Below the pieces are notes generated by a model that saw only the letters and a program-made list of their open reading frames with translations, had not been told where the DNA came from and did not search any database. This document shows, piece after piece, positions 49,794 to 64,000 of a DNA stretch of 64,000 bases (its first letter is position 1; each line of letters begins with the position of its first letter). This DNA is from a virus. Taxonomy: Duplodnaviria; Heunggongvirae; Uroviricota; Caudoviricetes. Where the stretch lies: IMG/VR virus record IMGVR_UViG_3300047274_000273, positions 55,217 through 119,216 of that record. The stretch is one strand, 5' to 3'. Position numbers and translations under genes: made by a program.

Positions 49794-49809
49794 TAGTAAA
49801 TAACTCACT

Positions 49810-50367
49810 ATGAATCTAAAAGAACTCACTCACGAACAACACAGAAGGGCCGAAACTCGTCCTTTTGTCAAGGTACTATTTTCAGGTAATGTAAATCCTA
49901 AGATTTATGCGACCTATCTAAAAAATCAGCATCCTATGTACGAAATCTTAGAAGTCTGTGCCATGCCGCATGGACTACTAAATGGACTATCCGAAATACG
50001 CAGAGCACCGGCGATACTCGAGGATTTCTCCGAACTATGGGGAGATTCAGATGAAAAGCCATATATGTGTCCTGTAGTAGATGATTATATCAAATACATT
50101 CTCGGTATCAAGGATAACCCAGAAAAATTAATGGCACATATCTATGTTCGTCATATGGGAGATCTCAGCGGCGGACAGATGATAGCTAAACGTGTTCCCG
50201 GTACCGGTAAGTATTATCAATTCGGCGATTCTCCGGAAAAGATCAAAGAAGCTATCAGATCAAAACTAGATGATAGTATGGCTGAAGAAGCCAAAGTCTG
50301 CTTTGATTTTGCCGCTAGATTTTTCGACGAAATGATGGAAGTGGTAAAATTATATGACACAGAGTAA
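49810..50367 (+). CDS. heme oxygenase
   Basis: LKELTHEQHRRAETRPFVK...NPKIYATYL: the heme-oxygenase N-terminal proximal helix with conserved His. Confidence 0.7.
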   Translation: MNLKELTHEQHRRAETRPFVKVLFSGNVNPKIYATYLKNQHPMYEILEVCAMPHGLLNGLSEIRRAPAILEDFSELWGDSDEKPYMCPVVDDYIKYILGIKDNPEKLMAHIYVRHMGDLSGGQMIAKRVPGTGKYYQFGDSPEKIKEAIRSKLDDSMAEEAKVCFDFAARFFDEMMEVVKLYDTE

Positions 50368-51040
50368 GGTCTGGGATACACTGATAGAAATACAAACTCT
50401 ATTAGAAGATTCTTTTAACCGCACAGGTAAAGAAGTATTCGAGCCAGGAATGGATCGTTTCAATCAGCCGGGTTGGGTAAATCGTGTCTGGACCAGTGAC
50501 AGTTATCGTAGAGCTCATATCGATGTAGTCGATGCCCGATCCACAAAGGGCCTTTGGATGATGCACTGCTGTATCTTCCCACATATCCATAACCCGGCAC
50601 CCATATTTGGTTTTGATGTTATCGCAGGTAAGAACAAAATCACAGGTTGTTTTCATGATTTTAGTCCCGCAGGTGATAGCGAGCATCACCTAATCGATTG
50701 GTTCGCAGATGAAGCCAGTAGATTAGAGTGGAATAAAACCCGTAAACTTCCCGAGTGGGCGGAGCGTATTTTTACAGGTAGTATGATAGCTGCCGGTAAT
50801 GTACAAGATGAAGCTGAACTAGAACAGCTCACAGATCTTGTAAAATTAACCACTAAAGTCTATCTACAGCACGTGGGCGATACGAATCATACTGCAAAGA
50901 ATACTACCTTTAATCAAAATTTCTACGCCCAAAATCAAAAAATGAATCCTCATACTCCTAAAGTAATGGCTAGCCTAGGCCTGAACGAAGAGGATGTACA
51001 GGTGTTTATACAGGATTGTCTGTTCCCAGAGATCCGATAA
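50354..51040 (+). CDS. ferredoxin-dependent bilin reductase (PcyA/PebS/PcyX family)
   Basis: FDBR family layout with central GFDVIAG and conserved His/Asp positions (HIDVVDA, HDFSPAGD). Overlaps the ho gene by 14 nt. Confidence 0.7.
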   Translation: MTQSKVWDTLIEIQTLLEDSFNRTGKEVFEPGMDRFNQPGWVNRVWTSDSYRRAHIDVVDARSTKGLWMMHCCIFPHIHNPAPIFGFDVIAGKNKITGCFHDFSPAGDSEHHLIDWFADEASRLEWNKTRKLPEWAERIFTGSMIAAGNVQDEAELEQLTDLVKLTTKVYLQHVGDTNHTAKNTTFNQNFYAQNQKMNPHTPKVMASLGLNEEDVQVFIQDCLFPEIR

Positions 51041-51050
51041 ATACTCTGTT

Positions 51051-52427
51051 ATGAGATTTTTTGAATTTAATCTACACGAGTCATCTAGAGGAATCCTATT
51101 TCGTACAGTAGGAGATCCCTTTAAATCCACTGCGGACCCTAATAAAACACTGACCTATGCAGGATCGCAGACATTTCCCGCCCCAGTTCCGGGCCAAGGT
51201 GCAGCTCAATTTCCCGATCCTGAAACATTTAATCAAGAAGTCGCTGCTGCTGAAAAAAAGTTTCCGGGGATCACATGGACTAATAAATCAAATGCTTCGA
51301 TGCGAGCATTTGCTGTGGTTACCTTAGACGATCCTGTCGCAAAGAAGAAGGTACATTTTGGTAGATTTTTCAAAGAAATATCACCGGACATGGCAGGTAA
51401 ATGGAAAAATGACGGTATACCCGGATATAGTCTAGAAATTAAATCTTCAAAGAAATCTAGATCGGGTCTTAAGCCCAACGATCTAATTCCATTAGGGCAG
51501 CAATTTCCAAACCCACAGGCACTTATAGAAGCTCTAAAACCAGATTTAGATCCTGCTATCAAAGCAGGATTGACAATGATAGTTGAAAAGAAACTACCAG
51601 TGTTTAATGTTGATGCTAGCATGGAAGCAGCTATTAGAGATGACCTAGGGGAAATAATCGCTCCCATGGCACTATGGCAAGGCATGATATCTGCAGAAGC
51701 AGAGTCAGCTAGAAAGTTTTTGTTGAAAACAACACCATGGAGTGCCTGTGCTATAACATTTTCATCAACTAAGAATGCAGGCTTGATTGATAGCTATGTT
51801 AAACCTCCAAAAGGCGTAGCTGTTGGTATTTCTAGTAAGGGTGCAGAAGGAGCTAAGGCATCTGCATCGAACATATGGGCAGGTGTTGAATTGCTACGTT
51901 CTACAGGACAACAAGATGTTGTCGATCAATACCCAGAAGCTGTTCATGTATTAGAAATGATCAAGCGAGAATCTCAATACCGAGGACCTATGGTACTAGG
52001 TACAGAATATGGTTTTCTTACTGGTCAAGACGAAACATTGATCAACCAGGCAATCAAGCAGGGAATGCAAAAACTACCTCCAGGACCAGAATGGGAAAAC
52101 ATAGGTGCATTAATGAAAAAATTTGCTCCTAGAGACATGTCTAAATCTAACTATAACATAGGGTATCATGCTCTTGCCGGATTGGCAAAAATGGTACAAG
52201 AAAAAGTCAACAGTAGTGTTCCAAAGTTTAGTGAAGCGTGTATAACATTCCTAAATAGTTCTCCATTATTACAGATACATCTGTATACCAAAGCATCCGG
52301 TAATACTGTTTCAGTAACCGGTTTCAAAACAATATGGCCTCCACAGTTCAAAGGATCCGTATCTCTCAATGCCGGCAAGAGTTATTATGCTACCGGTGTC
52401 ATAAACAAGTTCGCGTTTAGTTGGTAG
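51051..52427 (+). CDS. hypothetical protein with MRFFEF N-terminus
   Basis: Start chosen at ATGAGATTTTTTGAATTT, identical to the start of the ORF at 21901. Confidence 0.4.
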   Translation: MRFFEFNLHESSRGILFRTVGDPFKSTADPNKTLTYAGSQTFPAPVPGQGAAQFPDPETFNQEVAAAEKKFPGITWTNKSNASMRAFAVVTLDDPVAKKKVHFGRFFKEISPDMAGKWKNDGIPGYSLEIKSSKKSRSGLKPNDLIPLGQQFPNPQALIEALKPDLDPAIKAGLTMIVEKKLPVFNVDASMEAAIRDDLGEIIAPMALWQGMISAEAESARKFLLKTTPWSACAITFSSTKNAGLIDSYVKPPKGVAVGISSKGAEGAKASASNIWAGVELLRSTGQQDVVDQYPEAVHVLEMIKRESQYRGPMVLGTEYGFLTGQDETLINQAIKQGMQKLPPGPEWENIGALMKKFAPRDMSKSNYNIGYHALAGLAKMVQEKVNSSVPKFSEACITFLNSSPLLQIHLYTKASGNTVSVTGFKTIWPPQFKGSVSLNAGKSYYATGVINKFAFSW

Positions 52428-52497
52428 TCTATATCTAGTGTTATAATTTTTTCAACCCGCTCAGTAAATACTAATACCGTTTACCGGGAGCGAAAAG

Positions 52498-52953
52498 ATG
52501 AAAAAATTGATAGCTGTGGCCATGGTTGCCTCTATGGCCGTTTCTGCACACGGAGCAGAAATAGTACATCAGTTCAATAGCCCTTCTTTTTCTGGAATAG
52601 GCTTCTCTAGTCATACGTTGACAATCTATTCCCAGGAACTAAGTAGAAAATTAGCTATTGCCGCTGAAAAAAAGGCAGAAGAGTTAAAAGCAGAGCAAGA
52701 TGCTAAAAATACCACACAGGCCAAGTTTATTGCGAACTTAGAAAGTAGGGTATACAACGAACTTGCACGTCAAATCACAGAAAAACTGTTCGAAGGAACA
52801 GGCACACAAGTCACTGGAACCTTCGCGTTCAACGGTGGCACCATTCGTTATACAAAAACAGGTAACGAAATAACCATAACAATAACAGGTGCAGACGGAA
52901 GTGTAACTACCATGACTGTGCCAGTAGGAGACTTCGGATGGCTAGCACCTTAA
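52498..52953 (+). CDS. csgF: CsgF-like curli assembly protein
   Basis: Signal peptide; mature N-terminus IVHQFNSPSFSG versus E. coli CsgF TMTFQFRNPNFGG; similar length. Confidence 0.55.
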   Translation: MKKLIAVAMVASMAVSAHGAEIVHQFNSPSFSGIGFSSHTLTIYSQELSRKLAIAAEKKAEELKAEQDAKNTTQAKFIANLESRVYNELARQITEKLFEGTGTQVTGTFAFNGGTIRYTKTGNEITITITGADGSVTTMTVPVGDFGWLAP

Positions 52954-54149
52954 TGAAACTTACACCGATAGCACTGGCTATCACACTAACTGGCTGTGGA
53001 ACAATAGGCAATGCTGTCCGATCATTTGACGAGCCTACTGTAACTAAACCTACACTAAAAGTAGAATCAACCTTAAAAGAACCGGCTGCTGGGGCTATCG
53101 CCATAGCTGTCTACAACTTCCGTGATATGACTGGCCAGCGTAAGGCCAGCCAAAACATTGCCAGCCTTAGTTCGGCTGTAACACAAGGTGCAGATGCTTA
53201 CCTTGTTAAGAGCCTACAAGAAGTAGGTGGCGGTCGTTGGTTCAAAGTATTAGAAAGAGGTGGATTAGATAATCTGGTCAAAGAACGTCAGCTTATCCGT
53301 CAAATGCGCGAACTGTATCAAGGTAAAGATGCACAGCCTTTACCTCCTATGCTGTTCGCTGGAATCATATTAGAAGGCGGTATTATCGGCTATGATTCTA
53401 ACACAATGAGCGGCGGATCCGGTGCTAGATTCCTAGGCATTGGCGCTTCTACAGAATATCGACAGGACGAAGTTACTATCAGCCTACGAGCAGTTTCAGT
53501 AGCCACTGGAGAAGTTCTAGTGACTGTGAACACAAACAAAAAAGTCTACAGTTTTCAAGACAAGCTAGGAGTTTTGCGTTTTGTAGATGCCGGAACACAA
53601 GCACTGGAGTTAGAAACAGGTTCTGCTACTAACGAATCTATGAACAAAGCGGTACAATTAGCCATACATGCTGCGGTCATAGAACTTATTAACTCTGGAG
53701 CAGGAAAAGGTCATTGGGCATTTAAATCCGATGTTGCTGCGGCACCTCAGCCAAGACCAGAACCTGTGGTTGTAAAAGAGGAGGAGGTAAAGAAAGATGA
53801 GTTGGTTCAAAAGGACTCCGCACCTAAAGAAGAAAAAATTGAAGCACCTGCGACACCCGCAGTACCACAACCCGATGACAGAAAAACTGTTACAGAAGAG
53901 CCAGCAAGAACAGAATCAAAAAACACAGACACAAACACAGTAATAACCGTGCAGCCTAAAGTTACTTTAGGAAATGTCACAGATTGGGTAAACGTAAGAA
54001 AAGAACGCGATATAAACAGCGAAAAGTTAGCCAATCTTAGGCCTGGAACGCAAGTAGAAGTACTTGATACTAAAGGCGATCACTACGTTGTTAGAGTCAA
54101 CGGAAAGGAAGGTTATGTAGTAAGAAAATTTATTAAGGTACAAAAATAA
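52938..54149 (+). CDS. csgG: CsgG-like curli secretion channel lipoprotein with C-terminal SH3b domain
   Basis: Lipobox LTGCG. IAVYNFRDMTGQ, LERGGLDNLVKERQLIR, GGIIGYDSNTMSGGSGARFLGIGAS and ISLRAVSVATGEVL align with E. coli CsgG. C-terminal VNVRKERD...GTQVEVL...YVVR is SH3_3-like. Confidence 0.8.
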   Translation: MASTLMKLTPIALAITLTGCGTIGNAVRSFDEPTVTKPTLKVESTLKEPAAGAIAIAVYNFRDMTGQRKASQNIASLSSAVTQGADAYLVKSLQEVGGGRWFKVLERGGLDNLVKERQLIRQMRELYQGKDAQPLPPMLFAGIILEGGIIGYDSNTMSGGSGARFLGIGASTEYRQDEVTISLRAVSVATGEVLVTVNTNKKVYSFQDKLGVLRFVDAGTQALELETGSATNESMNKAVQLAIHAAVIELINSGAGKGHWAFKSDVAAAPQPRPEPVVVKEEEVKKDELVQKDSAPKEEKIEAPATPAVPQPDDRKTVTEEPARTESKNTDTNTVITVQPKVTLGNVTDWVNVRKERDINSEKLANLRPGTQVEVLDTKGDHYVVRVNGKEGYVVRKFIKVQK

Positions 54150-54176
54150 CAATAACAGTACCACGGAGCGAAGAAA

Positions 54177-54860
54177 ATGATCAAAAATAATTATAAAATG
54201 GCTTTCATTATGGCGGCCATATTTGCCGGTTCAGGATCAGTTCAGGCAAACAACGGAGTCTATATTGAACAAGTAGGTTCCACAAACACAGTTACTATCA
54301 CTCAAATAGGCGCTAATAATAGAGTGGGTAACAGCGGTTTAAATCAACAGAGTAAAATTACAGGCAGCAACAACACATTGACTGCTAGCCAAACAGGCGA
54401 CGGAAATATCATAGACTACACAGTAATAGGCAGCGGCAACACTATTACTAAAACTGTAGCAGGAGATACCAATCAAATCACCTTTATCTGCGGCGATGGA
54501 ACAACCAGCTGTAGTAATGTGACCAGCACCATGACACTCACTGGTAATCAAAATACTGTTACTAGTACGATCAAAGGTTCTTCGATCACTAACATGTTGT
54601 CTATCACCGGTGACAGCAATACTGTAACACAGACTATCACTACCAACAATAGCACTAGTTCTATTACTATCCTAGGCGACAGTAATACCTTTACTAGTTC
54701 GATGACTGGTGCCAGCGCAGGCGCAGGACATCATTTGCTGGCGTCTGTTACAGGTACCAGCAATACCCATACTATTACACAGAGCGGTACCGTGAATACC
54801 ACGGTTAATGTTACCACCAATGGTAACAGCAATAATGTAACTGTAAGTACTGGAAACTAA
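54177..54860 (+). CDS. curlin-repeat protein (CsgA/CsgB-like amyloid subunit candidate)
   Basis: Signal peptide, then repeats of T-x-T-Q-x-G-x-x-N type (VTITQIGANN, LTASQTGDGN, HTITQSGTVN). Confidence 0.55.
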   Translation: MIKNNYKMAFIMAAIFAGSGSVQANNGVYIEQVGSTNTVTITQIGANNRVGNSGLNQQSKITGSNNTLTASQTGDGNIIDYTVIGSGNTITKTVAGDTNQITFICGDGTTSCSNVTSTMTLTGNQNTVTSTIKGSSITNMLSITGDSNTVTQTITTNNSTSSITILGDSNTFTSSMTGASAGAGHHLLASVTGTSNTHTITQSGTVNTTVNVTTNGNSNNVTVSTGN

Positions 54861-55939
54861 TGAAATATGCATGGCTACTATTGACCGTATTTGCCCTGGA
54901 CGCTAATGCCGCAATTGGCACGATGAGCGAAGTCCAGGGCACAGCCATTGAAATCAAAAGAAACAAATCTGCCATCGTAGGCAAAACAAATTCAGAAGTA
55001 GAATCTATGGATGCAGTAACCGTAGGTTCAAAATCACAGGTCGGAATTATTTTCAAAGATAGTACCAAAGTAAAGATCACAGAAAATTCTAGACTGGTCA
55101 TAGACGATTTCGTCTTCGACCCTAAGAAATCAGATGCTGGTAAACTAGGCATGAAAGTGGCTCTAGGCACCGTACGTTACGCATCTGGGCAGGTAGCTAA
55201 AAATAATCCTCAAAATGTAAACATAAAAACCCCTACAGCTTCTATCGCTGTACGTGGAACAGACTTTGCCATGACTGTAGATGAAGTTGGACGTAGTCTT
55301 GTTGTATTGTTACCTAGCTGCGATGATCCCACCAAACTAAACAACTACCAGATACAAGGTAACTGCGTGGTAGGGGCTATCGATGTTATTACAGATGCAG
55401 GTCTAGTCAGCCTCAATCAAGCCTATACAGCGACTTATGTAACTGATGCACAACAGCCTCCACTGCCCCCAGTAAAGGTCGATCCTGTGGCTGTTAGCAA
55501 TGACAGCAATCTTAAAAAACCGGAAAACATCGCTCGGGCAGAAACTGATAGAGAAGAGAAGAAAGACGCAGCAAGAGATAAATCAAAGTTCGGTGATGAC
55601 GAACGTAAAAAGGCCGGCGAATCTAATGAAAGATCTCTGTCGGAAAAGAAAGCTCAAGAAGAAGAAGGTACGAAACTCATAGGATTGAATGGTAATAATA
55701 ATGGTGCATTAGGTAATCCTGCATCTAATCCCTGTTGGCCTTTCAATGACTGTGGTAATGAAAAAGGACTGAACTGGTACTATCGCAAAGATGACGATCG
55801 CGGCAATACTATCTTTATTAGGTCCGGAGAAAAGTTCGATAATACTACCTATAATATTTCTATCAACAGCAACGACATAGAAACTCGCGTCAACGGAGAT
55901 GGCAGTAATAAAGTTACAGTAAGGATATGGAACAAATGA
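54860..55939 (+). CDS. secreted FecR-domain protein
   Basis: Signal peptide; IAVRGTDFAMTV FecR-like core. Confidence 0.45.
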   Translation: MKYAWLLLTVFALDANAAIGTMSEVQGTAIEIKRNKSAIVGKTNSEVESMDAVTVGSKSQVGIIFKDSTKVKITENSRLVIDDFVFDPKKSDAGKLGMKVALGTVRYASGQVAKNNPQNVNIKTPTASIAVRGTDFAMTVDEVGRSLVVLLPSCDDPTKLNNYQIQGNCVVGAIDVITDAGLVSLNQAYTATYVTDAQQPPLPPVKVDPVAVSNDSNLKKPENIARAETDREEKKDAARDKSKFGDDERKKAGESNERSLSEKKAQEEEGTKLIGLNGNNNGALGNPASNPCWPFNDCGNEKGLNWYYRKDDDRGNTIFIRSGEKFDNTTYNISINSNDIETRVNGDGSNKVTVRIWNK

Positions 55940-57858
55940 GAAATCTGTTGATTTTTTTGTTCGGTGTTATGTCTGTATTGAATTCTGCGATAGCTAATGC
56001 TAACTACGGATTTGAAGGCGGCCTAGGAGCTGAATGGCAGATCGGAGGTACTACCGGCACACAATCTGCAACTGCCTGGAATGATACAGGAGTTGGTGTA
56101 AGTATAGTTACTGGTGTTACAAACTACAGTCCTGGCGGTGGTAATACTTGGAACATAACTCCCTATGGTACTAAAATGGCCAGTATACAAGGCGGTGGTT
56201 TAGCCTTTGATCAGATCACTTCGGGACTAGGGCTGTCGGGAGTAGAGAACACTGCGATCAAAAATATGTTGACCTATCAGTCACAGAATGGTGGCGGTGG
56301 CAATCCAACACCTACCACAGGTTCCTATATGAAACGGGAAGTCACACTGCAAGCAGGTCAGACCTATACCATGGCCTGGCAGTATCTTTCCACAGACTAT
56401 ACTCCGTTCAATGATGGTTCTATCATGACTTTGGTTCATAGCAGTGACGGAAACATTACTCCTACACTAAACAATAAACAACAGAGATATTCTTTACTAG
56501 GTTTTACCAATCCCGGAACGGGTAACTATGCCACAGGCAGCTACGGTGCCACAGGTTGGCAGGTAGCTACATTTACTGTGCCGGTGTCGGGCACATATGT
56601 TCTAGGTTTTACATCATTTAACCTAGGTGATACAGCATTGAGTCCTATCCTACTAGTTGACGAAGTACAGGGAACAACTACACTAAACGGACAGACATTT
56701 ACTCCAGTTAATCCTAATCCGGGATCAGATGCACCTCCACCTCCTACACCGTCTGTGCCCACAGCCGTGTATAACTCGGGCATCAGTCAAAATGTTTGGA
56801 TAACTAATCACTATCCTACATCAAATAATTCACCTGCAGGAGAAGGTGCTGCTAATGCCTTTGACAATAATCCCGATACCAAATATTTGAACTTTGATAA
56901 GAAGAATGCAGGTGTTACGGTCAAACTAAACGTTGGTAAAGTCATAACAGGATTTACATTGACCACTGCCAACGACTTTCCGGGACGAGATCCAACCAGT
57001 TACAAACTATATGCGTCTAACGACGGCGTCACTTGGACACTGATCAGTGAAGGTAGTCTTTCATTGACTGACAGTAGAAAAACAACCAGCAGTATGATCT
57101 CAGTGACCAATACCAACCCTTATGTCTACTACTACATTTTCTTTCCTACAACCAAAGCAGGTGAGGGTTGCGGATTAAACTGTGACAGTATGCAGATCGC
57201 TGAAATCACTTTTTATTACGAATCTGGTAATACAGCAACTTCAACTGCCACAGGATCGGGATCGGTGTCAAACCCTAGTGATCTTTGTTGCGGCGGAGTT
57301 AGCACTCCATTCAATGCTAACACAGGATTCGCTACTAGAGCAGGAGTATTTTCTGCCGCAGGAGACAGCCGTGTTATCATAGAACAGATAGGTAACTATA
57401 ACACAGCTAACATTACACAGTCAGGCAGCAAAAACTATCTCGAAGCTAATTTCACAGGCAACAATAACTCATTGACTGCTAATCAAACTACTGCTAACTC
57501 GTCTACAAACTACACAGAGTTAAACGTTACAGGAAACAGTAATACTCTTAACATCACACAGAATAATACAGGTGGTTCCAAAGGCATAATGGCTACTGTG
57601 GATAATTCTTCTAACTCTGTAACTGTTAATCAATCTGGTACGGGCAATCATTATTCAGAAATAAACCTCACTGGTGGTAACAAGACCGTGAATGTAACAC
57701 AGAGTGGATCAGCAGCACACATGGCCAAGATTGAACTCAGCGGTGGTGCTACATCGATCACTACCACACAGACTGGTGCTACACAGCAGCACTATTCAAT
57801 CACTCATAACTGCGCTCAAGCTAGTTGTGCAGCAATCACTGTAACACAAGGGCAATAA
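55927..57858 (+). CDS. large secreted protein: F5/8-type-C (discoidin) domain fused to C-terminal curlin repeats
   Basis: Signal peptide; AFDNNPDTKYLNF...YKLYASNDGVTWTLI discoidin-like segment; C-terminal approximately 200 aa of ITQSGSKN / VNQSGTGN / VTQSGSAA repeats. Confidence 0.55.
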   Translation: MEQMRNLLIFLFGVMSVLNSAIANANYGFEGGLGAEWQIGGTTGTQSATAWNDTGVGVSIVTGVTNYSPGGGNTWNITPYGTKMASIQGGGLAFDQITSGLGLSGVENTAIKNMLTYQSQNGGGGNPTPTTGSYMKREVTLQAGQTYTMAWQYLSTDYTPFNDGSIMTLVHSSDGNITPTLNNKQQRYSLLGFTNPGTGNYATGSYGATGWQVATFTVPVSGTYVLGFTSFNLGDTALSPILLVDEVQGTTTLNGQTFTPVNPNPGSDAPPPPTPSVPTAVYNSGISQNVWITNHYPTSNNSPAGEGAANAFDNNPDTKYLNFDKKNAGVTVKLNVGKVITGFTLTTANDFPGRDPTSYKLYASNDGVTWTLISEGSLSLTDSRKTTSSMISVTNTNPYVYYYIFFPTTKAGEGCGLNCDSMQIAEITFYYESGNTATSTATGSGSVSNPSDLCCGGVSTPFNANTGFATRAGVFSAAGDSRVIIEQIGNYNTANITQSGSKNYLEANFTGNNNSLTANQTTANSSTNYTELNVTGNSNTLNITQNNTGGSKGIMATVDNSSNSVTVNQSGTGNHYSEINLTGGNKTVNVTQSGSAAHMAKIELSGGATSITTTQTGATQQHYSITHNCAQASCAAITVTQGQ

Positions 57859-57974
57859 TCCTCTAACTAAATAGCTGTGTTTTTTTAAGGACAAGCTATG
57901 ATTTTAGAAATAATGATGTGGGGATTTTTCTCTGCGTGGGGCTGGTTTGGTGCTAGTTATATCAAAGATAAAGT

Positions 57975-58283
57975 TTGGCCCGAAACTCCCCCGGCACAGT
58001 CACAGCCCGAAACGCAACACAGAAAAGACAGCTGATGTTAACATATCTTATAACTTTTATTGCGATTTTTGTAACAGATATAATTTATGTTTGTTTTGTA
58101 AATTCTATACAACAAAATCAACCAATGACTGCTAGCTTCTGGTCGGCGTTCGTTACCTTCACCGCCAGTATCGCAGTGATTAATTATACCCAGGATAACT
58201 GGGCATTGATACCTGCGTTACTGGGCGCATTCTGCGGAACCTATGCAGGCATGCTTATAAAGGATAGGATTAAAACTAAATAG
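57975..58283 (+). CDS. small membrane protein
   Basis: Three hydrophobic spans. Confidence 0.35.
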   Translation: MARNSPGTVTARNATQKRQLMLTYLITFIAIFVTDIIYVCFVNSIQQNQPMTASFWSAFVTFTASIAVINYTQDNWALIPALLGAFCGTYAGMLIKDRIKTK

Positions 58284-58301
58284 TGTTTTAAGGAGTGAGC
58301 C

Positions 58302-58598
58302 ATGCGTTTTTTAACCGTGGCGTTCCTATTCTGCCTATCCGGCACCGTAGCCAACGCCCAGCCATTTGAGAGCCGTAAACCTGTGCTCTGCGATGATACC
58401 AAAACTCTAATCAAGAGCCTTACGGAAAACTATAACGAAAAACCCATTTGGACAGCTCGCAATCCCGTAGACCATACAAGATTTGGGTTATTCGTTAATT
58501 CTAAAACCGGATCTTGGACACTTTTACAAATGACTCCGGACATAGCCTGTATTCTCGGCGTTGGCGAAGAATCTAGTTCGATTGGCGATTCGACCTAA
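58302..58598 (+). CDS. small secreted protein
   Basis: Signal peptide MRFLTVAFLFCLSGTVANA. Confidence 0.4.
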   Translation: MRFLTVAFLFCLSGTVANAQPFESRKPVLCDDTKTLIKSLTENYNEKPIWTARNPVDHTRFGLFVNSKTGSWTLLQMTPDIACILGVGEESSSIGDST

Positions 58599-58733
58599 AA
58601 AGAAATTTCTTATGTAGGTGTAGTCTTGTCTTGTTGTATTGAACAGCAATAACGACTAATGCATCTAATCAAGGTAGTGTTTTTGCTACCAATAGTGCCA
58701 TACCTGCCCACTATGCATTTAGTTAAATATAAA

Positions 58734-60788
58734 ATGATGAAAAAAATACTTTTAAGTCCTTGGACTGCCTTGATCACATTAGTACTTGTTACAAGTATAA
58801 GAATAGCCGATCCTGTACTTGTAGAAAGTATAAGATTACGTTATTTCGACACGCTGATCACTAGTAAAGCACCTACAGAAAATAACATCGTTACTGTAAA
58901 CATAGATGAGTCGGCCTTAGAGAAATACGGCCAGTGGCCATTTAAGCGAGACATTTATGCCGATCTAATCGAAGATCTTTATAAAAGAAAAGCAGGTCTA
59001 GTAGTTTTCAACGTGCTGATGACCGAACCAGATCGACAAGGTGGTGACGGAGCTCTAGCAGCCACACTTAATGAGTTTCCTGTGGTGTTGCCTAACATGC
59101 CCGCAGATCGAAATAAAAATATGCCTCGACAACCAGGTACGGCTGTGATAGGTGCAGACTTCCAGGATATGATAGTGCAGTATCCCGGTATCATAGCTAA
59201 TGTTCCGGATTTAGAAAGCAGAGCAGTAGGAGTAGGTACGGTCAACACACTACCAGAAGTAGATGGAGTTAATCGTCGCATGCCACTGATAGTGTCTGTC
59301 GACGGCAAAGTATATCCTAGCCTATCTATGGAGATACTAAGAGTGGCATCTGGGGATACTACTACACAGATCAAACTGTTTGAAGGTGGTGTTGAAAAGA
59401 TGCGTATACCTGCCTACGGTCCTGTGTCTACAGATCCTCTAGGCCGTGTGTGGATTGATTGGAGCCAGAAGAGTCGCTCAGTGTCTATGACAGATCTTCC
59501 TAAAGACTTAAATGGTGCTGTAGTTATCGTAGGAGTAGCCGCAGCCGGTCTAGGTAATCCTGTGCCCACAGCAGTCGGCAGCATATGGCCGCACGAAGCA
59601 CAGGCTGCGGTAGTTGGAACGATGTTCAACAATGTCACTATTCAACGCCCTGATTATGCCGACGGTGCTGAAATCTTAACACTGGCTCTAGCAGGTATAT
59701 TATTGATATTTTTAACGAGGTATGTATATGCAGGTTTGGCAACGACGATTATTCTTATCTCTGGCACTGCTGTTGGCAGTTGGATTGTGTTCGATCTCTA
59801 TCTATGGTTATTTGACGCTACTGCCCCTGGAGTTGGCCTACTCATGGTCGCTCTGCATGCCTATGGCGTCAAGTTTGTAAGTGAGTTCTTACAGAAGCAG
59901 GCAATCAAGAAACAGTTCGCTGGCTACTGCTCACCTGAAGTTGTTAGACTTCTACAAGAAAATCCAGACTTAATCAAGAAAGGTGTTAAGAAAGATGTGT
60001 CAGTTATGTTCAGTGACCTGCGTGGATTTACTCCTATCGGTGAACACTTTGACAAGCCAGGCAATGGCGGGCCTGAAGGTCTGGCCAAGTATATGAACGG
60101 ATATATGGATGCTATTACTATTCCTATCATTGATGCCAACGGTATGGTGCTCAAGTATGTAGGTGATGCATCAATGCACATACATGGTGCTCCTTTAGAA
60201 GATCCTAACCATGCACATACTATTGTAAGGGTAGGACTAGAGATGTTAGATCGAGTAGACGCTTATACAAAAGAAATGGAAGCAAAAGGTCTACCACCTG
60301 CCGCAATGGGGTGGGGTTGCAATACAGGAGACGGATATATCGGTGAGATGGGATCAACTGCAAGACACGGCTACGACATCCTAGGTGATATGGTTTCAAC
60401 TGCGGCTCGTCTAGAAGCACGTTGTAAGGCCTACGGTGTGTTGTGTATCATTGGTGCTGAAACTTATAAGCGTACCAAGGATGATTTCTTTTATTTGCTA
60501 CTAGACAACCTACAACCAAAAGGTAAGAGTGTAGCAGATCTGATCTATACTGTGTTGCGCACTCATGGTGAAGATTATACAAAAGATCGAGAACAACATG
60601 ATAGGATGCATGCCTTGTACAAGGCCAAGAAGTTTGACGAAGCAGCCGCTATGTGCGAAAAACTAAAGGGTAACTTCGGTGGACAAATGGACAAGTACTA
60701 CGATATCTGGATTGACCGTTGTAGTTTTATGAAACAGCAAGATCTAGGCGATAATTGGAATGGCGAATTTATCGCCCACGAAAAATGA
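58734..60788 (+). CDS. CHASE2-sensor membrane class III adenylate/guanylate cyclase
   Basis: CHASE2 segment (IVTVNIDESALEKYGQWPFKRDIYADLIEDL...VVFNVLMTEPD), TM cluster, then CYCc domain (VSVMFSDLRGFTP, KYVGDASM, MVSTAARLE). Confidence 0.7.
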   Translation: MMKKILLSPWTALITLVLVTSIRIADPVLVESIRLRYFDTLITSKAPTENNIVTVNIDESALEKYGQWPFKRDIYADLIEDLYKRKAGLVVFNVLMTEPDRQGGDGALAATLNEFPVVLPNMPADRNKNMPRQPGTAVIGADFQDMIVQYPGIIANVPDLESRAVGVGTVNTLPEVDGVNRRMPLIVSVDGKVYPSLSMEILRVASGDTTTQIKLFEGGVEKMRIPAYGPVSTDPLGRVWIDWSQKSRSVSMTDLPKDLNGAVVIVGVAAAGLGNPVPTAVGSIWPHEAQAAVVGTMFNNVTIQRPDYADGAEILTLALAGILLIFLTRYVYAGLATTIILISGTAVGSWIVFDLYLWLFDATAPGVGLLMVALHAYGVKFVSEFLQKQAIKKQFAGYCSPEVVRLLQENPDLIKKGVKKDVSVMFSDLRGFTPIGEHFDKPGNGGPEGLAKYMNGYMDAITIPIIDANGMVLKYVGDASMHIHGAPLEDPNHAHTIVRVGLEMLDRVDAYTKEMEAKGLPPAAMGWGCNTGDGYIGEMGSTARHGYDILGDMVSTAARLEARCKAYGVLCIIGAETYKRTKDDFFYLLLDNLQPKGKSVADLIYTVLRTHGEDYTKDREQHDRMHALYKAKKFDEAAAMCEKLKGNFGGQMDKYYDIWIDRCSFMKQQDLGDNWNGEFIAHEK

Positions 60789-60939
60789 TGTATACTCCAC
60801 TGGATTGGTGGTTTGACTATTCTGTATGGTTGATGCTACAATATAAGTTTATATATCCAGCTAAGTTGATCAGTGTCAACGAAGACATGGAAAACTTCTT
60901 AAAACAATTTAGTCTTAACGGAATCAAAACCGTTAACAT

Positions 60940-61659
60940 TTGCAGACCATGGTAAAAATAACTTTATTTCTATTTACGATATTGTTATCAGTACAGAGCT
61001 ATGCTAAAGATATCACTGCTACAGCTTGGTTAGTAGCCAACGGTGATGGGGATATCATTCAGAGTGAAAACATGCATGAACGCAGAAGCATAGCCAGTAT
61101 TACAAAACTGATGACTGTCATGGTGGTACTTGATGCTCATCAAGATCTAGATCAATACTTCCGACCCTATACTAGAAAAGAACTGATACAACTGGCTATC
61201 GTTCATTCTGATAATAGAGCTTCGGAAAAACTGTGCAATCATTATCCGGGAGGAAGACCCGCCTGTGTCTCGGCTATGAATGCTAAGGCCAGATATCTGG
61301 GCATGATTGATACCAACTTTGTCGACCCCACTGGTCTGGGAGTAATGAATTCTAGCACAGCCTACGATCTAATTAAATTGGTCAGAGCAGCAGAGCATTA
61401 TAGTGAAATCGTAGAAGCCAGCAATATGTCTGCGGTTAAGATACAGAACAAGAAAAAATTCCTAGTGTTTAAGAATACTAATCCGTTAGTCGCTCAAAAT
61501 GATTTTATCATTAGCAAAACTGGTTATATCAGAGCATCAGGGGGCTGTATAGTTATGATGCTAGATACAAAAATAGGACGACGCATAGTCGTCCTATTGA
61601 ATTCAAAGAATACTAGAACTCGTATTCCTGAAGCCTATAAGCTAGCCAGTAGCTATTAA
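60940..61659 (+). CDS. secreted D-alanyl-D-alanine carboxypeptidase/endopeptidase (peptidase S11, PBP7-like)
   Basis: Signal peptide; SIASITK (SxxK), HSDN (SxN), SKTGY (KTG). Confidence 0.65.
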   Translation: MQTMVKITLFLFTILLSVQSYAKDITATAWLVANGDGDIIQSENMHERRSIASITKLMTVMVVLDAHQDLDQYFRPYTRKELIQLAIVHSDNRASEKLCNHYPGGRPACVSAMNAKARYLGMIDTNFVDPTGLGVMNSSTAYDLIKLVRAAEHYSEIVEASNMSAVKIQNKKKFLVFKNTNPLVAQNDFIISKTGYIRASGGCIVMMLDTKIGRRIVVLLNSKNTRTRIPEAYKLASSY

Positions 61660-62000
61660 CCTTCTCCGCTGGCCGCTGACTTTTTATCATCTATGTGAGC
61701 AGCTTCGTCAAATTTTTGATTGGCTTCTTTGTCTACCTTGACCTGTTCAAGCACACGTTCGCTTTCAATAATCTTGCCTCTTAGATGCAGAGTAGTATTA
61801 ACCTTCTGTTGAAGCCTTATAAGATCATTATCAAGCATACGAATACGATCAATAAGCGCGATTAAGGTAGTATTAGCTTCGCTGAGCACAGGTTTGATTT
61901 CAGTAGTGGCCCACTTCCATACGTAGAAAATAAGATATCCCATACCGCCGGCAGCGACGATAGGAAAACCGTATTTGTTAACTAATTCTACTGGATCCAT
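61656..62000 (-). CDS. single-TM coiled-coil protein, paralog of the ORF at 62761..63042
   Basis: YGFPIVAAGGMGYLIFYV TM, then a coiled coil. Confidence 0.4.
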   Translation of the reverse strand: MDPVELVNKYGFPIVAAGGMGYLIFYVWKWATTEIKPVLSEANTTLIALIDRIRMLDNDLIRLQQKVNTTLHLRGKIIESERVLEQVKVDKEANQKFDEAAHIDDKKSAASGEG

Positions 62001-62009
62001 TTATTTCTC

Positions 62010-62225
62010 CTAGATATTGTTGAATGGTGTATTTGGATTTTTTTTCACGGGTTTTTCTTTGGCTTTGTCGTGATAATAATTCCATGCACTCATTGACTGC
62101 CTTTTTTTAGTATCATTAAGTTCTTTTTCTATCTCTTTATAAGACATACAGGCATAGACGGCAAATACCAGAGCGATCGTAGCCAAAATGTAAGTTATTC
62201 CGAATAATATGATCGTCGAGTCCAT
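62010..62225 (-). CDS. small N-terminal-TM protein
   Basis: ORF only. Confidence 0.3.
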   Translation of the reverse strand: MDSTIILFGITYILATIALVFAVYACMSYKEIEKELNDTKKRQSMSAWNYYHDKAKEKPVKKNPNTPFNNI

Positions 62226-62461
62226 TATCCGATCAAAGGTCTAAAAGATTGTTCAACTGGTCTCCATGCCCATTCATAGCCTACTACGAGACCAACTAAA
62301 AATCCTATGACCACTCCTATGGCTAGAGATTTATACAAATCTTTGTCGCGCCAAACCGGTTGCTCCTTGATATACTTCTGCATCTGTGGAGATAAAGAAT
62401 CCCACCATACTTCATACTTGTTCATTTTTTTCCGCTCCTTTGAGTATGAACTGCTGTACAT
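62225..62461 (-). CDS. small C-terminal-TM protein
   Basis: ORF only. Confidence 0.3.
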   Translation of the reverse strand: MYSSSYSKERKKMNKYEVWWDSLSPQMQKYIKEQPVWRDKDLYKSLAIGVVIGFLVGLVVGYEWAWRPVEQSFRPLIG

Positions 62462-62642
62462 CTCCTACCTTTCTTAAAATTTGCCTTCCGTTAATATTGA
62501 TGAGTTGGAAATAATCACCGCCTTTCCAACCTAGTCTATCACTGTTAAATTCCTCGTCTAGGATGATGCCTCTTTCGCTACAATCCCAGGTATAATCAAT
62601 GTATAACATTTTTATTCCTTCCAAAATCCCCACGGATCCCAA
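62412..62642 (-). CDS. hypothetical protein
   Basis: ORF only. Confidence 0.25.
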   Translation of the reverse strand: MGSVGILEGIKMLYIDYTWDCSERGIILDEEFNSDRLGWKGGDYFQLININGRQILRKVGDVQQFILKGAEKNEQV

Positions 62643-62760
62643 ATTTTCCTAGGTTGCATTTTGGGTTCGTGATAATAGTATAATGCTGCTCCAACCAATA
62701 CCAAGCATTCGAGGAGATAAAAAACCAAAAAGGATTCGAACAGCAGGCTAAGTTCCATGC

Positions 62761-63042
62761 TTAATCTCTTCTAGCATCATTCTTTCCATCTGCACGAGCG
62801 ATACGTTCTACATCGGGTCTAAGACCCAATGCATTCGAAACCACTGTGTCGATTCGAATCACATCGTGATTCATGGTTTTGACTCTGTTATCCAATGCAC
62901 CAATGATACCTTTGATACCATTAACACTAGATGTAACACCAGCCAAAATAAATTTGAGCGTTAGGAATACGAAGTATCCTGCTCCCATTGCAGCCGCGAT
63001 TGGAAATCCCAATTCCGCGACCAGTTTGAAAAAATCTCCCAT
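62761..63042 (-). CDS. single-TM coiled-coil protein, paralog of the ORF at 61656..62000
   Basis: LGFPIAAAMGAGYFVF TM; ALDNRVKTMNHDVIRI parallels LIDRIRMLDNDLIRL in the paralog. Confidence 0.4.
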   Translation of the reverse strand: MGDFFKLVAELGFPIAAAMGAGYFVFLTLKFILAGVTSSVNGIKGIIGALDNRVKTMNHDVIRIDTVVSNALGLRPDVERIARADGKNDARRD

Positions 63043-63079
63043 CGTTTCGCTCCCGGGTTATGTACGTGTATTTAACTGA

Positions 63080-63108
63080 TTGACAGGATCTTTAACTGGT
63101 GCTATAAT
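63080..63108 (+). promoter_or_regulatory. perfect consensus sigma70 promoter TTGACA-17-TATAAT
   Basis: Exact consensus hexamers and a 17-nt spacer, about 30 nt upstream of the phosphoesterase ATG. Confidence 0.7.
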
Positions 63109-63137
63109 ATACACATATTTCTAACAAAGTGAGCAAA

Positions 63138-63983
63138 ATGCGTATCCAAATCGTATCAGATCTGCATCTAGAATTCGCAGATATCAACATCCAAAATGCA
63201 GGCGACACTGATGTGTTGATCCTGTCCGGAGACATCATGGTCGCTCAAGATCTCCATGATCATCCTACGGTTGATAGCCTTTGGGATCCACCAAATGCCC
63301 AGGGCATAGGACGTCGACAAGAAACTGCTCTTCGCTTTCGCGACTTCCTCAAGCGTTGTAGTTTTCAGTTCCCTCACGTTATCTATGTTGCCGGCAACCA
63401 CGAATTTTATCATGGTAAGTTTTTTGCCAGTCTTGATTATCTACGTGAAGAATGTGCCAAGTTCGATAATGTGTATTTTCTAGAACAAGATGTTAAGACC
63501 ATAGATGGTATTATGTTTATGGGTGCTACTCTGTGGACTGACTGTAACAAACATGATCCGTTTACACTTCATGCTCTAGCAGATATGATGAACGATTTTA
63601 GAATCATTCGACATGACTATGCCGGATTCCGTAAACTTAAACCTGCTGATATCGCAGAACGACATCGCAAGACTCTAGACTACTTTAAGACTGTTCTAGA
63701 TACACAGGCTCCTGAACAAAAGTTTGTGGTGGTGGGACATCACACCCCGAGTCACTTGAGCTGTCATCCGCAGTATGCACATGATTATATCATGAACGGT
63801 GGTTATCACAGCGATCTAAGTGAGTTCATACTAGATCATCCTAACATCGTTCTTTGGACTCATGGTCATACACATCATCCTTTTGACTATGTCATAGGCA
63901 GTACTAGGATCGTGTGTAATCCCAGAGGCTATGATGGCTATGAGGATACTGGTTGGGACATGATGAAAGTCATAGAAATATGA
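63138..63983 (+). CDS. calcineurin-like metallophosphoesterase
   Basis: IVSDLHLEF, LSGDI, VAGNHE, GHHTP, THGHTH. Start taken at ATG 63138 rather than the GTG at 63129. Confidence 0.6.
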   Translation: MRIQIVSDLHLEFADINIQNAGDTDVLILSGDIMVAQDLHDHPTVDSLWDPPNAQGIGRRQETALRFRDFLKRCSFQFPHVIYVAGNHEFYHGKFFASLDYLREECAKFDNVYFLEQDVKTIDGIMFMGATLWTDCNKHDPFTLHALADMMNDFRIIRHDYAGFRKLKPADIAERHRKTLDYFKTVLDTQAPEQKFVVVGHHTPSHLSCHPQYAHDYIMNGGYHSDLSEFILDHPNIVLWTHGHTHHPFDYVIGSTRIVCNPRGYDGYEDTGWDMMKVIEI

Positions 63984-64000
63984 TCGATGTGTATCTAAAT

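Follow-up and report, generated by a model that had tools for sequence, protein, structure and literature searches.

What would a phage-encoded receptor cyclase sense when its gene closes a run of curli-secretion genes, and which nucleotide would it make? The question is raised by a 64,000-nucleotide stretch of a Caudoviricetes genome (positions 55,217 to 119,216 of IMG/VR record IMGVR_UViG_3300047274_000273; hereafter the window). An earlier note, made from the sequence alone, had read the gene as one for a class III cyclase of the receptor type, encoded by the phage and bearing its CHASE2 domain outside the cytoplasm; this reading is borne out by the profile matches (Table 1), the fold of an AlphaFold2 (AF2) model and the phage genes that the window carries. 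The gene family and its cassette context have already been described, and the cyclase is not new. As to function, the enzyme is probably a cAMP-producing envelope sensor, the output end of a phage curli-FecR cassette.

The open reading frame spans 58659-60788 on the plus strand. The start at 58734 (MMKKIL...) fits the way in which most close homologues begin (MLKKIL, MMKKIL, MKKILL), and an in-frame upstream ATG at 58659 is, on sequence grounds, unlikely to be the start of the gene. The earlier note had the same start, and its length of 685 residues included the stop codon. Both Pfam profiles score far above their gathering scores: CHASE2 (PF05226) reaches 136.8 bits against a cut-off of 26.3, and Guanylate_cyc (PF00211) covers aa 419-582 with 49.5 bits (E 5.1e-13). 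PHROG 35576 matches the protein over its full length at 6e-185, and an NCBIfam search matched no model to it. In the AF2 model (mean pLDDT 91.5), an N-terminal helix leads into a domain of mixed alpha/beta structure, which is followed by three long helices (aa 309-395) and then a cyclase fold. Pfam, a Kyte-Doolittle scan and the model thus agree on the layout of a CHASE2 receptor, in which an N-terminal transmembrane helix, the CHASE2 domain and three transmembrane helices precede the output domain.

In the model the third transmembrane helix runs on as a cytoplasmic helix. The linker that follows, with helices at 363-395 and 401-409, has ten invariant columns in the homologue alignment (K388, I391, K393, Q394, F395, Y398, P401, V404, L407 and P411). 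It resembles the cyclase-transducer element of class III cyclases. Beyond the catalytic domain, the tail forms three helices in the model (616-667) and ends in a conserved motif, W675-x-G-x-[FY]-x-A-x-x-K684, which is common to alphaproteobacterial CHASE2 cyclases and missing from the homologue of phage HTVC008M.

Table 1. Features of the curli-FecR cassette and of the cyclase, in window coordinates
Feature	Nucleotides	Residues	Strand	Basis
CsgF homologue (type VIII secretion)	52498..52953		+	Pfam CsgF 6.8e-16; PHROG 35372
CsgG outer-membrane channel homologue	52938..54149		+	Pfam CsgG 6.4e-52; NCBIfam CsgG 2e-50
Curlin-repeat protein, signal peptide	54177..54860	227 aa	+	Pfam Curlin_rpt 3.2e-5, above gathering score
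Secreted FecR-domain protein	54860..55939	359 aa	+	Pfam FecR 1.3e-10; PHROG 37870 at 4e-70
Secreted protein, F5/8 type C (discoidin) domain and C-terminal curlin-like repeats	55927..57858	643 aa	+	Pfam F5_F8_type_C 1.4e-10
Small protein, signal peptide	58302..58598	98 aa	+	ORF
CHASE2-sensor class III cyclase gene	58734..60788	684 aa plus stop	+	
TM1 of cyclase	58758-58808	9-25	+	hydrophobic segment and model helix
Predicted periplasmic CHASE2 domain	58776..59699	15-322	+	Pfam E 1.3e-39; TM1 precedes
Three transmembrane helices	59658..59888	309-385	+	Kyte-Doolittle scan; AF2 helices 309-329, 331-356, 363-395
Conserved helix-Pro-helix linker, directly N-terminal to catalytic domain	59889..59966	386-411	+	alignment and model
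Class III cyclase catalytic domain	59982..60557	417-608	+	profile and fold
Metal Asp	60015-60017	D428	+	in FSDLRGFT
Phosphate-binding Arg		R430	+	alignment
Adenine Lys	60153-60155	K474	+	alignment to solved cyclases
Metal Asp	60165-60167	D478	+	in KYVGDASM
Second specificity residue	60375-60377	D548	+	alignment to solved cyclases
Ser at transition-state Asn position	60396-60398	S555	+	alignment
Transition-state Arg	60408-60410	R559	+	alignment
Lys residues of catalytic domain		K596/K598	+	alignment
C-terminal helical tail	60558..60785	609-684	+	alignments; tails of 78 viral homologues; model

Is the catalytic domain equipped for catalysis, and on which substrate? The metal-binding Asp that the earlier note had placed in FSDLRGFT is present as D428; it and D478 line up with the metal Asp pair in solved cyclases, and both are invariant in 40 diverse homologues. 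At the position of K474, the phytochrome-regulated cyclase fusion 6fht has Lys and the guanylyl cyclase Cya2 (2w01) has Glu; at that of D548, Asp is found in 4p2m, a solved adenylate cyclase, and Thr in CyaB. Inspection of the specificity residues, as the earlier note had proposed, thus gives an ATP-type pair, Lys474/Asp548, and predicts ATP as the substrate. Class IIIb cyclases are recognised by a second specificity residue that is Thr or Ser; the window enzyme has Asp548 there.

The transition-state Asn-Arg pair is incomplete: R559 is kept, and the Asn is replaced by Ser555 (VSTAAR versus VNxAxR). The loss of catalytic residues, named beforehand as the finding that would point to a pseudo-cyclase, is therefore confined to one of six, with the other five present, and strict conservation in the homologues argues against a dead enzyme. 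Among the 120 closest homologues (76-90% identity), FSDLRGFT, YDILGDMVSTAARLE and LQPKGK are identical in every one, and KYVGDASM was found by regular expression in 119; in the one remaining protein the first match of the expression was another, non-catalytic segment (RFGGDGAL). The transition-state Asn is dispensable in one natural enzyme, the active cyclase Ma1120, whose Ala at this position cannot be changed back to Asn without loss of activity (PMC4215837).

Ser555 belongs to a larger set of changes. Positions 548 and 555 co-vary perfectly among 78 viral homologues (Asp/Ser in 55, Thr/Asn in 22, Ser/Asn in one), and the Asp548/Ser555 pair is retained in all 55 homologues of that type, down to 42% identity. 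Thr or Ser stands at 548 in the sister viral clade (22 loci), in HTVC008M and in bacterial homologues. A plain neighbour-joining tree, computed without support values, indicates that the Asp/Ser variant arose once, from within the viral Thr/Asn clade. Ser555 is one of about nine changes fixed in the clade; others, T471M, D473I, A482H, W484H, N538E, F545H and L556T, fall at sites nearly invariant elsewhere and bring in new His residues at 482, 484 and 545 and a Glu at 538. Because Ser555 is joined by changes at near-invariant positions, activity or substrate may differ from those of canonical enzymes. The fixed Asn-to-Ser and Thr-to-Asp variant is also a natural experiment on class III cyclase catalysis.

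How far might such divergence go? One speculative proposal, which we consider rather unlikely, is that the Asp548/Ser555 clade, to which the window and Methylophilales phage Melnitz belong, is a phage-born, functionally diverged cyclase. Its roughly nine substitutions, with the three new histidines among them, would have altered substrate, product or allosteric control, and the enzyme, the secreted FecR-domain protein and the CsgG/CsgF channel would jointly make up a virus-built, envelope-spanning sensor of the cell surface or of the state of curli secretion. If this were true, the sensor could inform the infected cell or the phage programme, for example in lysis timing or the detection of neighbouring cells. 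An active cyclase of changed specificity or regulation, making cGMP, cCMP or cUMP or answering to a cytoplasmic effector unlike that of its Thr/Asn relatives, is an unlikely alternative to cAMP production. The perfect co-variation, the new His and Glu residues and the single origin of the clade speak for it, as does a moderate match to Pycsar cyclase models (8.6e-12); however, Lys474 with Asp548 is the classical ATP pair, and the PycC score of 42.8 bits is no better than that of the generic Pfam profile.

It is also conceivable, if quite improbable, that the protein is a pseudo-cyclase, in which the CHASE2-transmembrane scaffold survives because it serves the curli module structurally or as a regulator, and the catalytic domain binds a nucleotide or a partner and makes no cyclic nucleotide (cNMP). 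Against this, the enzyme and its 120 closest homologues all keep both metal Asp residues, the Lys/Asp pair, the Arg of the transition state and the Arg and Lys that bind phosphate, the Asp548/Ser555 motif persists across the whole range of viral loci that carry it, and Ma1120 is active only without the Asn. Decay, moreover, would not yield a fixed, co-varying set of substitutions.

The setting of the gene bears on the reading of the enzyme as a cAMP-producing sensor. At 52498-60788, on the plus strand, the cassette runs in the order CsgF, CsgG, curlin-repeat protein, FecR-domain protein, 643-aa curlin-like protein and, last, the cyclase; the order is identical in Melnitz, HTVC008M and close relatives. 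CsgF, CsgG, curlin and FecR genes accompany the cyclase in 52 of the 55 IMG/VR loci with at least 7 kb of upstream sequence. The CsgG homologue carries a C-terminal SH3_3 domain (Pfam 9.5e-11). The 643-aa protein shows weak CsgA/CsgB matches at 2e-4, and by synteny its gene corresponds in position to the second gene for a curlin-repeat protein in Melnitz and HTVC008M. The 98-aa gene that separates it from the cyclase also occurs in three close relatives (L011, L012, L013) and in three viral loci that are less closely related (L021, L051, L056); its product has no Pfam or NCBIfam match. Promoter and terminator consensus scans of 49500-63200 gave counts at or below shuffled expectation, and the T4 late-promoter motif TATAAATA was not enriched in that region; the operon-like grouping of the cassette is taken from gene order and spacing and not from such signals.

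What, then, does the CHASE2 domain sense? A generic external or periplasmic cue had been suggested, and this gives way to something more specific, the cyclase being the last gene of a conserved curli/type VIII secretion (T8SS)-FecR cassette (PMC9599517). Because it ends that cassette, the likely cue relates to the envelope module and to the secreted FecR-domain partner. The latter begins with a cleavable-looking signal peptide, MKYAWLLLTVFALDANA, and its FecR domain (aa 52-148, PF04773) is the sole match. A FecR anti-sigma regulator of ferric citrate transport was considered and rejected, as the protein has neither an anti-sigma domain nor a transmembrane helix; no sigma factor or FecA-like gene lies within the cassette. 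By blastp it matches bacterial FecR proteins encoded beside CHASE2 cyclases (3e-14, 8e-14 and 3e-8).

In bacteria the two genes go together. A FecR-domain gene adjoins the CHASE2 cyclase in all five alphaproteobacterial loci inspected, the bacterial context having been drawn from a plasmid collection, and the two form a pre-existing alphaproteobacterial signalling pair. In Sinorhizobium meliloti, nsrA lies directly upstream of cyaK, and the FecR domain of NsrA is found at 2.3e-15. There, cAMP from the CHASE2 cyclases CyaD1, CyaD2 and CyaK is read by Clr, and NsrA is required (PMC7529298, PMC13001267); CyaD1 deleted for CHASE2 is constitutive (PMC5498481). The gene smc02177, which has been named with smc02178 as a Clr target (PMC5498481), itself encodes a FecR-domain protein. 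CHASE2 histidine kinases of Burkholderia are likewise paired with LysM-FecR proteins (PMC5192318). By analogy, the secreted FecR-domain protein of the phage is proposed to be the periplasmic partner of the CHASE2 sensor. Reading FecR as the usual partner of CHASE2, and not as an iron regulator, gives a testable model that leads from the FecR protein to CHASE2 to cAMP.

For the phage system, we infer cyclase activity, ATP specificity, a FecR-CHASE2 interaction, the nature of the signal and the reader of the cAMP, and the steps would be as follows. The phage would express an inner-membrane receptor cyclase in the infected cell. The enzyme would be a homodimer with CHASE2 on the periplasmic side and a pair of class III catalytic sites on the cytoplasmic side. 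To each site one chain would presumably contribute D428 and D478, and its partner K474, D548, S555 and R559. The predicted reaction, from Lys474 and Asp548, is that of ATP to 3',5'-cAMP. The secreted FecR-domain protein would act as periplasmic co-sensor of the CHASE2 domain, a role that would parallel the activation of CyaK, CyaD1 and CyaD2 by the FecR-containing outer-membrane protein NsrA in S. meliloti. The module may thus translate the condition of the envelope, or that of the curli apparatus built by the phage, into a cytoplasmic cAMP level.

The role of the phage curli module has been called a mystery in the literature. Wittmers et al. (PMC9599517) report transcripts of phage curli components and of the affiliated FecR in ocean metatranscriptomes. 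Related phages infect some of the most abundant marine bacteria, and since their known hosts (SAR11, OM43) lack curli genes in published accounts, the whole cassette would be a virus-imported function. The receptor cyclase at its end implies that the phage brings in a signalling line of its own as well, from envelope to cytoplasm. No cNMP receptor was found at E <= 0.01 by phmmer among all ORFs of the window and the flanks of 87 related phage or metagenome loci, a search of limited sensitivity that covered part of each phage genome and used three queries, E. coli CRP and two cNMP-binding proteins of the Ensifer and Paracoccus loci. A metallophosphoesterase at 63129 was considered as a cAMP phosphodiesterase and is unsupported; NCBIfam gave no model for it.

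Could the enzyme serve defence or counter-defence instead, as the earlier note had also suggested? A cyclic-nucleotide device of this kind, such as a Pycsar- or CBASS-like signal generator or a decoy, is very unlikely. It has in its favour a common class III fold and the weak PycC match, and nothing else; by contrast, no effector gene lies adjacent, the window and the flanks of the 87 loci yielded no cNMP-binding protein, the conserved neighbours are curli/T8SS and FecR genes and not defence genes, and the closest bacterial relatives are envelope-signalling cyclases. Membership in Pycsar was likewise set aside, PADLOC having returned generic PycC matches only and no effector with a cNMP-binding domain lying next to the cyclase.

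The cyclase gene is phage-encoded. The window carries a virion structural protein closest to those of T4-like cyanomyoviruses, together with ribonucleotide reductase (RNR) genes and a tail-spike-like gene, and full-length cyclase homologues are found in two cultured phages, HTVC008M and Melnitz. A megablast of 52000-64000 against cultured phages gave no match; the relatives are visible at the protein level only. When a bacterial and archaeal genome collection was scanned with the cyclase protein, all five matches were contigs of metagenome-assembled genomes (MAGs), labelled Chitinophagaceae, Rhodobacteraceae, Bacteroidetes and Pirellulales, and these look like phage DNA. That the gene is bacterial, from a host contig or a mis-binned fragment, is an extremely improbable reading of these five matches, given that their labels are mutually inconsistent and the contigs short, that the cultured Melnitz and HTVC008M have the gene in the same context, that T4-like structural and replication genes lie in the window, and that at least 581 IMG/VR viral stretches encode relatives.

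How does the system compare with those already known? The window shares a T4-like marine myovirus background with Methylophilales phage Melnitz and Pelagibacter phage HTVC008M, whose cyclases are 44.5% (QZI94833, over 99% of the length) and 35% (AGE60353) identical to its own. The Asp/Ser variant is common to the window and Melnitz, whereas HTVC008M has a canonical Ser/Asn site and no C-terminal tail. Compared with both cassettes, the window replaces the second curlin gene of roughly 340-440 aa with the 643-aa discoidin/curlin-like protein, has two additions ahead of the cyclase, the conserved secreted protein of 98 aa and a small membrane ORF, and carries the SH3 domain on CsgG.

Among solved enzymes, Pseudomonas aeruginosa CyaB (3r5g) and Spirulina CyaC (1wc0) have Thr and Asn where the window has Asp548 and Ser555, and Synechocystis Cya2 has Gly in place of that Thr and likewise has the Asn. 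The sensor domain of CyaB is MASE2, and CyaC and Cya2 have no sensor domain or have other domains instead of CHASE2. Wittmers et al. (2022) described the cyclase within a phage curli (type VIII secretion)-FecR-cyclase module (PMC9599517); their passages on the module do not mention CHASE2 and treat FecR as an iron regulator.

The closest parallel in layout comes from S. meliloti, where CyaK, CyaD1 and CyaD2 share with the window enzyme a transmembrane helix, CHASE2, three transmembrane helices, a class III domain and a C-terminal tail. CyaK has the same two Pfam domains and aligns to aa 332-664 at about 31% identity, and a FecR-domain protein is encoded upstream there too, NsrA immediately before CyaK. 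These cyclases make cAMP, and their CHASE2 domain is inhibitory (PMC5498481, PMC7529298, PMC13001267). The systems also differ. CyaK is typed Ser/Asn, and in the Ensifer, Paracoccus and Ruegeria homologues residue 548 is Ser or Thr and residue 555 is Asn; the S. meliloti system is bacterial, not viral, and its cognate receptor of the CRP type, Clr, is known. According to the literature, NsrA combines FecR, TPRs and an outer-membrane barrel in one 1200-aa protein, whereas the phage has a soluble FecR protein plus a separate CsgG channel; the fusion of FecR to the barrel in S. meliloti counts against the parallel.

A further likeness is found in the BiofilmReg operon of Burkholderia, where a periplasmic FecR-domain protein is again encoded beside a CHASE2 sensor, although the output there runs through a histidine kinase and a response regulator and there is no linkage to curli (PMC5192318). 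Because Burkholderia pairs FecR with a CHASE2 histidine kinase, FecR-CHASE2 is a reusable input module, whatever the output domain.

The existence of the cyclase as described in the earlier note is confirmed. Its open reading frame spans 58659-60788 on the plus strand, and the ATG at 58734, the start chosen in that note, gives 684 residues and an N-terminus (MLKKIL, MMKKIL or MKKILL) common to most close homologues. Pfam places CHASE2 (PF05226, E 1.3e-39) at residues 15-322 and the adenylate/guanylate cyclase catalytic domain (PF00211, E 5.1e-13) at residues 419-582, both far over the gathering score; the identification as a phage membrane protein with a CHASE2 sensor and a class III cyclase was right. 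The layout listed in the table follows from a hydrophobicity scan together with an AlphaFold2 model (mean pLDDT 91.5, pTM 0.73). In the alignment of cyclase homologues, ten columns of the linker that precedes the catalytic domain, P401 among them, are invariant; this linker resembles the cyclase-transducer element known from other class III enzymes and may tentatively carry that name. The tail (residues 609-684) is helical, and W-x-G-x-[FY]-x-A-x-x-K stands at the extreme C-terminus of almost all viral and bacterial homologues. In contrast to the window cyclase, the homologue from the cultured Pelagibacter phage HTVC008M has no such tail.

Is the enzyme active, and on which substrate? Catalytic residues were assigned by alignment to solved cyclases and homologues. 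The earlier note left ATP and GTP open and proposed inspecting the specificity residues. The position of K474 is occupied by Glu in Cya2, a guanylyl cyclase, and by Lys in 6fht, a cyclase fusion regulated by phytochrome; the pair of K474 and D548 therefore predicts ATP as the substrate, a reading that is probably right. The metal-binding Asp D428 and the specificity residues are present, as had been claimed, and so is the second metal-binding Asp, D478, but it had been overlooked that Ser555 stands in place of the canonical transition-state Asn (VSTAAR versus VNxAxR). Judged from the alignments, Ser555 is a character of the whole clade and no accident of the window sequence, because YDILGDMVSTAARLE is present in all 120 closest homologues, positions 548 and 555 co-vary perfectly among 78 viral homologues (Asp/Ser in 55, Thr/Asn in 22, Ser/Asn in 1), and the HTVC008M and bacterial homologues, unlike the window, pair Ser or Thr with Asn. 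The changes T471M, D473I, A482H, W484H, N538E, F545H and L556T are fixed in the Asp/Ser clade, while another residue is near-invariant elsewhere. By neighbour-joining, without support values, the Asp/Ser sequences form one clade inside a viral Thr/Asn clade, itself nested among the remaining sequences.

An unlikely reading is that the cyclase has changed in specificity or regulation. Quite unlikely, too, is a pseudo-cyclase: the strict conservation of the catalytic residues speaks against decay and argues for a remodelled yet working enzyme. Yan et al. reportedly found in 1997 that the transition-state Asn of mammalian cyclases contributes to kcat, so a lower turnover of the Ser555 enzyme is plausible. 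A further point against a pseudo-cyclase is Ma1120, which has Ala at this position and is naturally active, whereas introducing Asn abolishes its activity (PMC4215837).

A role in cyclic-nucleotide defence or counter-defence, also raised in the earlier note, is very unlikely. PADLOC gives the cyclase a generic PycC match only and finds no effector gene beside it, and a low-sensitivity search of the window and the flanks of 87 related phage and metagenome loci (parts of genomes) found no cyclic-nucleotide-binding protein; the idea therefore carries little weight. Genes for cNMP-binding proteins do lie near the cyclase in two bacterial loci, those of Ensifer and Paracoccus (a cNMP-binding patatin). 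In the alphaproteobacterial loci L008 (1819-2349) and L009 (3215-5041), such proteins are encoded near the FecR/CHASE2-cyclase pair, one fused to a patatin-like phospholipase. A calcineurin-like metallophosphoesterase in the window (63129-63983, +; PHROG 1649, 1.6e-53; PADLOC candidate PDC-S10, 6.8e-11) is kept a few kb downstream of the cyclase in relatives and has no similarity to the cAMP phosphodiesterase models of NCBIfam.

That the cyclase gene is not a phage gene is scarcely credible. The source of the window is a phage: the protein encoded at 5263-6597, a structural protein of the virion, has its closest matches in T4-like cyanomyoviruses (S-RIM32 best, 50% identity; 173 phage records match), and the window also encodes a class I ribonucleotide reductase, a tail-spike-like gene, many small co-oriented ORFs, tRNA-Gly, a CUA-anticodon tRNA and a permuted tmRNA. 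Among cultured phages, tblastn finds full-length homologues in four genomes of the Methylophilales phage Melnitz (44.5% identity, 99% coverage) and another in HTVC008M (35%, 82%), all annotated as adenylate/guanylate cyclase. PHROG 35576 covers the entire cyclase (6e-185). In a word-indexed search 7930 of 8000 scored candidates reached E <= 1e-10, the best 120 of the 8000 all being full-length and 76-90% identical; an exhaustive search of 50%-identity representatives gave 4009 clusters at E <= 1e-30. At least 581 IMG/VR stretches (of 600 candidates) are confirmed relatives. Five matches in the bacterial/archaeal genome collection look like mis-binned phage DNA, since they are short MAG contigs with labels from four unrelated phyla.

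Several related contigs (those of the homologues P0059 and P0118 and the loci L017 and L054) measure 357-364 kb, which would make them either jumbo-sized phages or head-to-tail dimers of ~180 kb genomes; others end at ~130-167 kb. The tmRNA gene of the window is permuted and two-piece (36528-36898, +; Rfam beta_tmRNA 134 bits, tmRNA_permuted 138 bits), with the tag ANAANDEVYALAA predicted by ARAGORN. Melnitz has a two-piece tmRNA of alphaproteobacterial type with a glutamine riboswitch, whereas that of the window matches the betaproteobacterial type and no riboswitch there reached the gathering score, which may point to a host resembling Burkholderiales or OM43. The CUA-anticodon tRNA (34102-34177, +; Rfam tRNA 59 bits), called Pyl by ARAGORN, would read the amber stop; tRNA-Gly(UCC) lies at 30864-30938 (+). 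Full-length Hsp70/DnaK (46806-48695, +; Pfam 1e-256) and an IMPDH/GMP-reductase family protein (45066-46100, +) are encoded as well, and the contig of the close relative L011 (1-1690, 21812-22043) adds Cpn60, Hsp20, ClpS and ClpP, a proteostasis set unusually rich for a phage.

The earlier note treated the cyclase without a conserved module, yet it is the last gene of a curli array. In Melnitz and HTVC008M, CsgF, CsgG, a curlin-repeat protein, a FecR-domain protein, a second curlin-like protein and finally the cyclase are co-oriented, and the window carries the same array.

Features of the curli array and of the cyclase (aa, residues of the cyclase)
Feature	Position	Strand	Basis
CsgF	52498-52953	+	Pfam 6.8e-16
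CsgG with C-terminal SH3_3 domain	52938-54149	+	Pfam 6.4e-52 and 9.5e-11
Curlin-repeat protein	54177-54860	+	Pfam 3.2e-5
FecR-domain protein	54860-55939	+	Pfam 1.3e-10
643-aa protein, discoidin domain and C-terminal repeats	55927-57858	+	Pfam 1.4e-10; weak CsgA/CsgB matches
Small membrane ORF	57975-58283	+	ORF only
98-aa secreted protein	58302-58598	+	kept in relatives
Cyclase	58734-60788	+	ORF and Pfam
N-terminal helix	aa 9-25		scan and AlphaFold2
Alpha/beta domain	between N-terminal helix and aa 309 helices		scan and AlphaFold2
Three long helices	aa 309-395		scan and AlphaFold2
Short helix-Pro-helix linker	after aa 309-395 helices		scan and AlphaFold2
Cyclase fold	after linker, before tail		scan and AlphaFold2
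Three-helix tail	C-terminal		scan and AlphaFold2
Metal-binding Asp	D428 and D478		alignment
Phosphate-binding Arg	R430		alignment
Adenine-specifying Lys	K474		alignment
Second specificity residue	D548		alignment
Transition-state Arg	R559		alignment
KGK motif	K596, K598		alignment

Gene order is retained in close relatives on long contigs, which also share an S11 peptidase downstream and genes for heme oxygenase and bilin reductase upstream. Linkage was examined by local tblastn on 80 fetched viral loci, counting the 55 in which 7 kb or more precede the cyclase; CsgF, CsgG, a curlin gene and FecR were all found in 52 of these. Wherever a locus has FecR as well as the cyclase, FecR precedes the cyclase on the same strand in 55 cases, and in 6 the cassette is rearranged yet adjacent.

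Individual members of the array have features of their own. The CsgG of the window has a long low-complexity linker and an SH3_3 domain (residues 351-399) absent in canonical CsgG; the extension is variable, as CsgG of relatives spans 308-392 aa. The secreted 643-aa protein joins an F5/8 type C domain (discoidin, of carbohydrate-binding type) to C-terminal curlin-like repeats, which would make it a candidate for a lectin-headed fibre subunit. Just upstream of the cassette, heme oxygenase and ferredoxin-dependent bilin reductase stand in tandem (49810-51040, +), a pairing found in the close relatives L011 and L012 and in 16 of the 55 loci. Directly downstream of the cyclase, a 239-aa S11 peptidase (60940-61659, +; Pfam 2.5e-39; NCBIfam PRK11669 6.5e-49, under its cut-off) resembles D-alanyl-D-alanine endopeptidase/carboxypeptidase and recurs in L011, L012, L013 and several IMG/VR loci; a functional link is conceivable between an envelope module and a phage peptidoglycan-trimming enzyme encoded beside it.

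The cyclase belongs to a described family and is no new kind of thing, given a literature on the module that the earlier note had missed. Zaragoza-Solas et al. 2020 reported the pelagimyophage curli operon and termed its function unclear (PMC7029224). In its accessible text, Buchholz et al. 2022 discusses CsgGF of Melnitz and does not use the word "cyclase" (PMC9004378). The accessible text of Wittmers et al. 2022 describes a T8SS cluster with FecR and adenylate cyclase in myo- and podo-pelagiphages, reports that it arose in Alphaproteobacteria and has been transferred from one virus family to another, finds transcripts of curli components, and of the FecR affiliated with them, in metatranscriptomes of the ocean, and regards FecR as an iron-dependent regulator, without the word CHASE2 (PMC9599517). 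To this are added two modest points: the reading of FecR as a partner of CHASE2, and an active-site variant specific to phages.

What does the FecR-domain protein do? A FecR-type anti-sigma factor is ruled out, because the phage protein consists of a signal peptide and a PF04773 domain only, both the cytoplasmic anti-sigma domain and the transmembrane helix being absent. The best explanation, which we hold with moderate confidence, is a predicted cAMP-producing inner-membrane sensor acting with the secreted FecR-domain protein in the phage curli module.

The nearest bacterial relatives are alphaproteobacterial CHASE2 cyclases (25-30% identity), many of them full-length including the C-terminal tail. 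A FecR-domain gene directly adjoins the cyclase in all five loci inspected (Ensifer, Paracoccus, Ruegeria, Shinella and Methylosinus), and csgG was found near the cyclase in none of them. By blastp, three of the bacterial partners match the phage FecR protein (3e-14, 8e-14 and 3e-8). In Ensifer and Shinella, the pair adjoins NHLP-type bacteriocin export genes. The S. meliloti gene nsrA directly precedes cyaK, and NsrA (1200 aa) carries a FecR domain at its N-terminus (2.3e-15), with TPRs after it. NsrA is an outer-membrane-associated receptor needed for signalling to the CHASE2 cyclases CyaK, CyaD1 and CyaD2, and the cAMP made by these cyclases is sensed by Clr, a regulator of the CRP family (PMC7529298, PMC13001267). 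Without CHASE2, CyaD1 produces cAMP constitutively, and smc02177, whose product is a FecR-domain protein, is named with smc02178 as a Clr target (PMC5498481). In Burkholderia, too, CHASE2 histidine kinases have LysM-FecR proteins as partners (PMC5192318). We read the FecR-domain protein and CHASE2 sensor as an input pair that can be reused; on this reading, the phage cassette would combine two units known from bacteria, one a minimal system for curli secretion and the other a signalling pair of FecR and CHASE2 cyclase.
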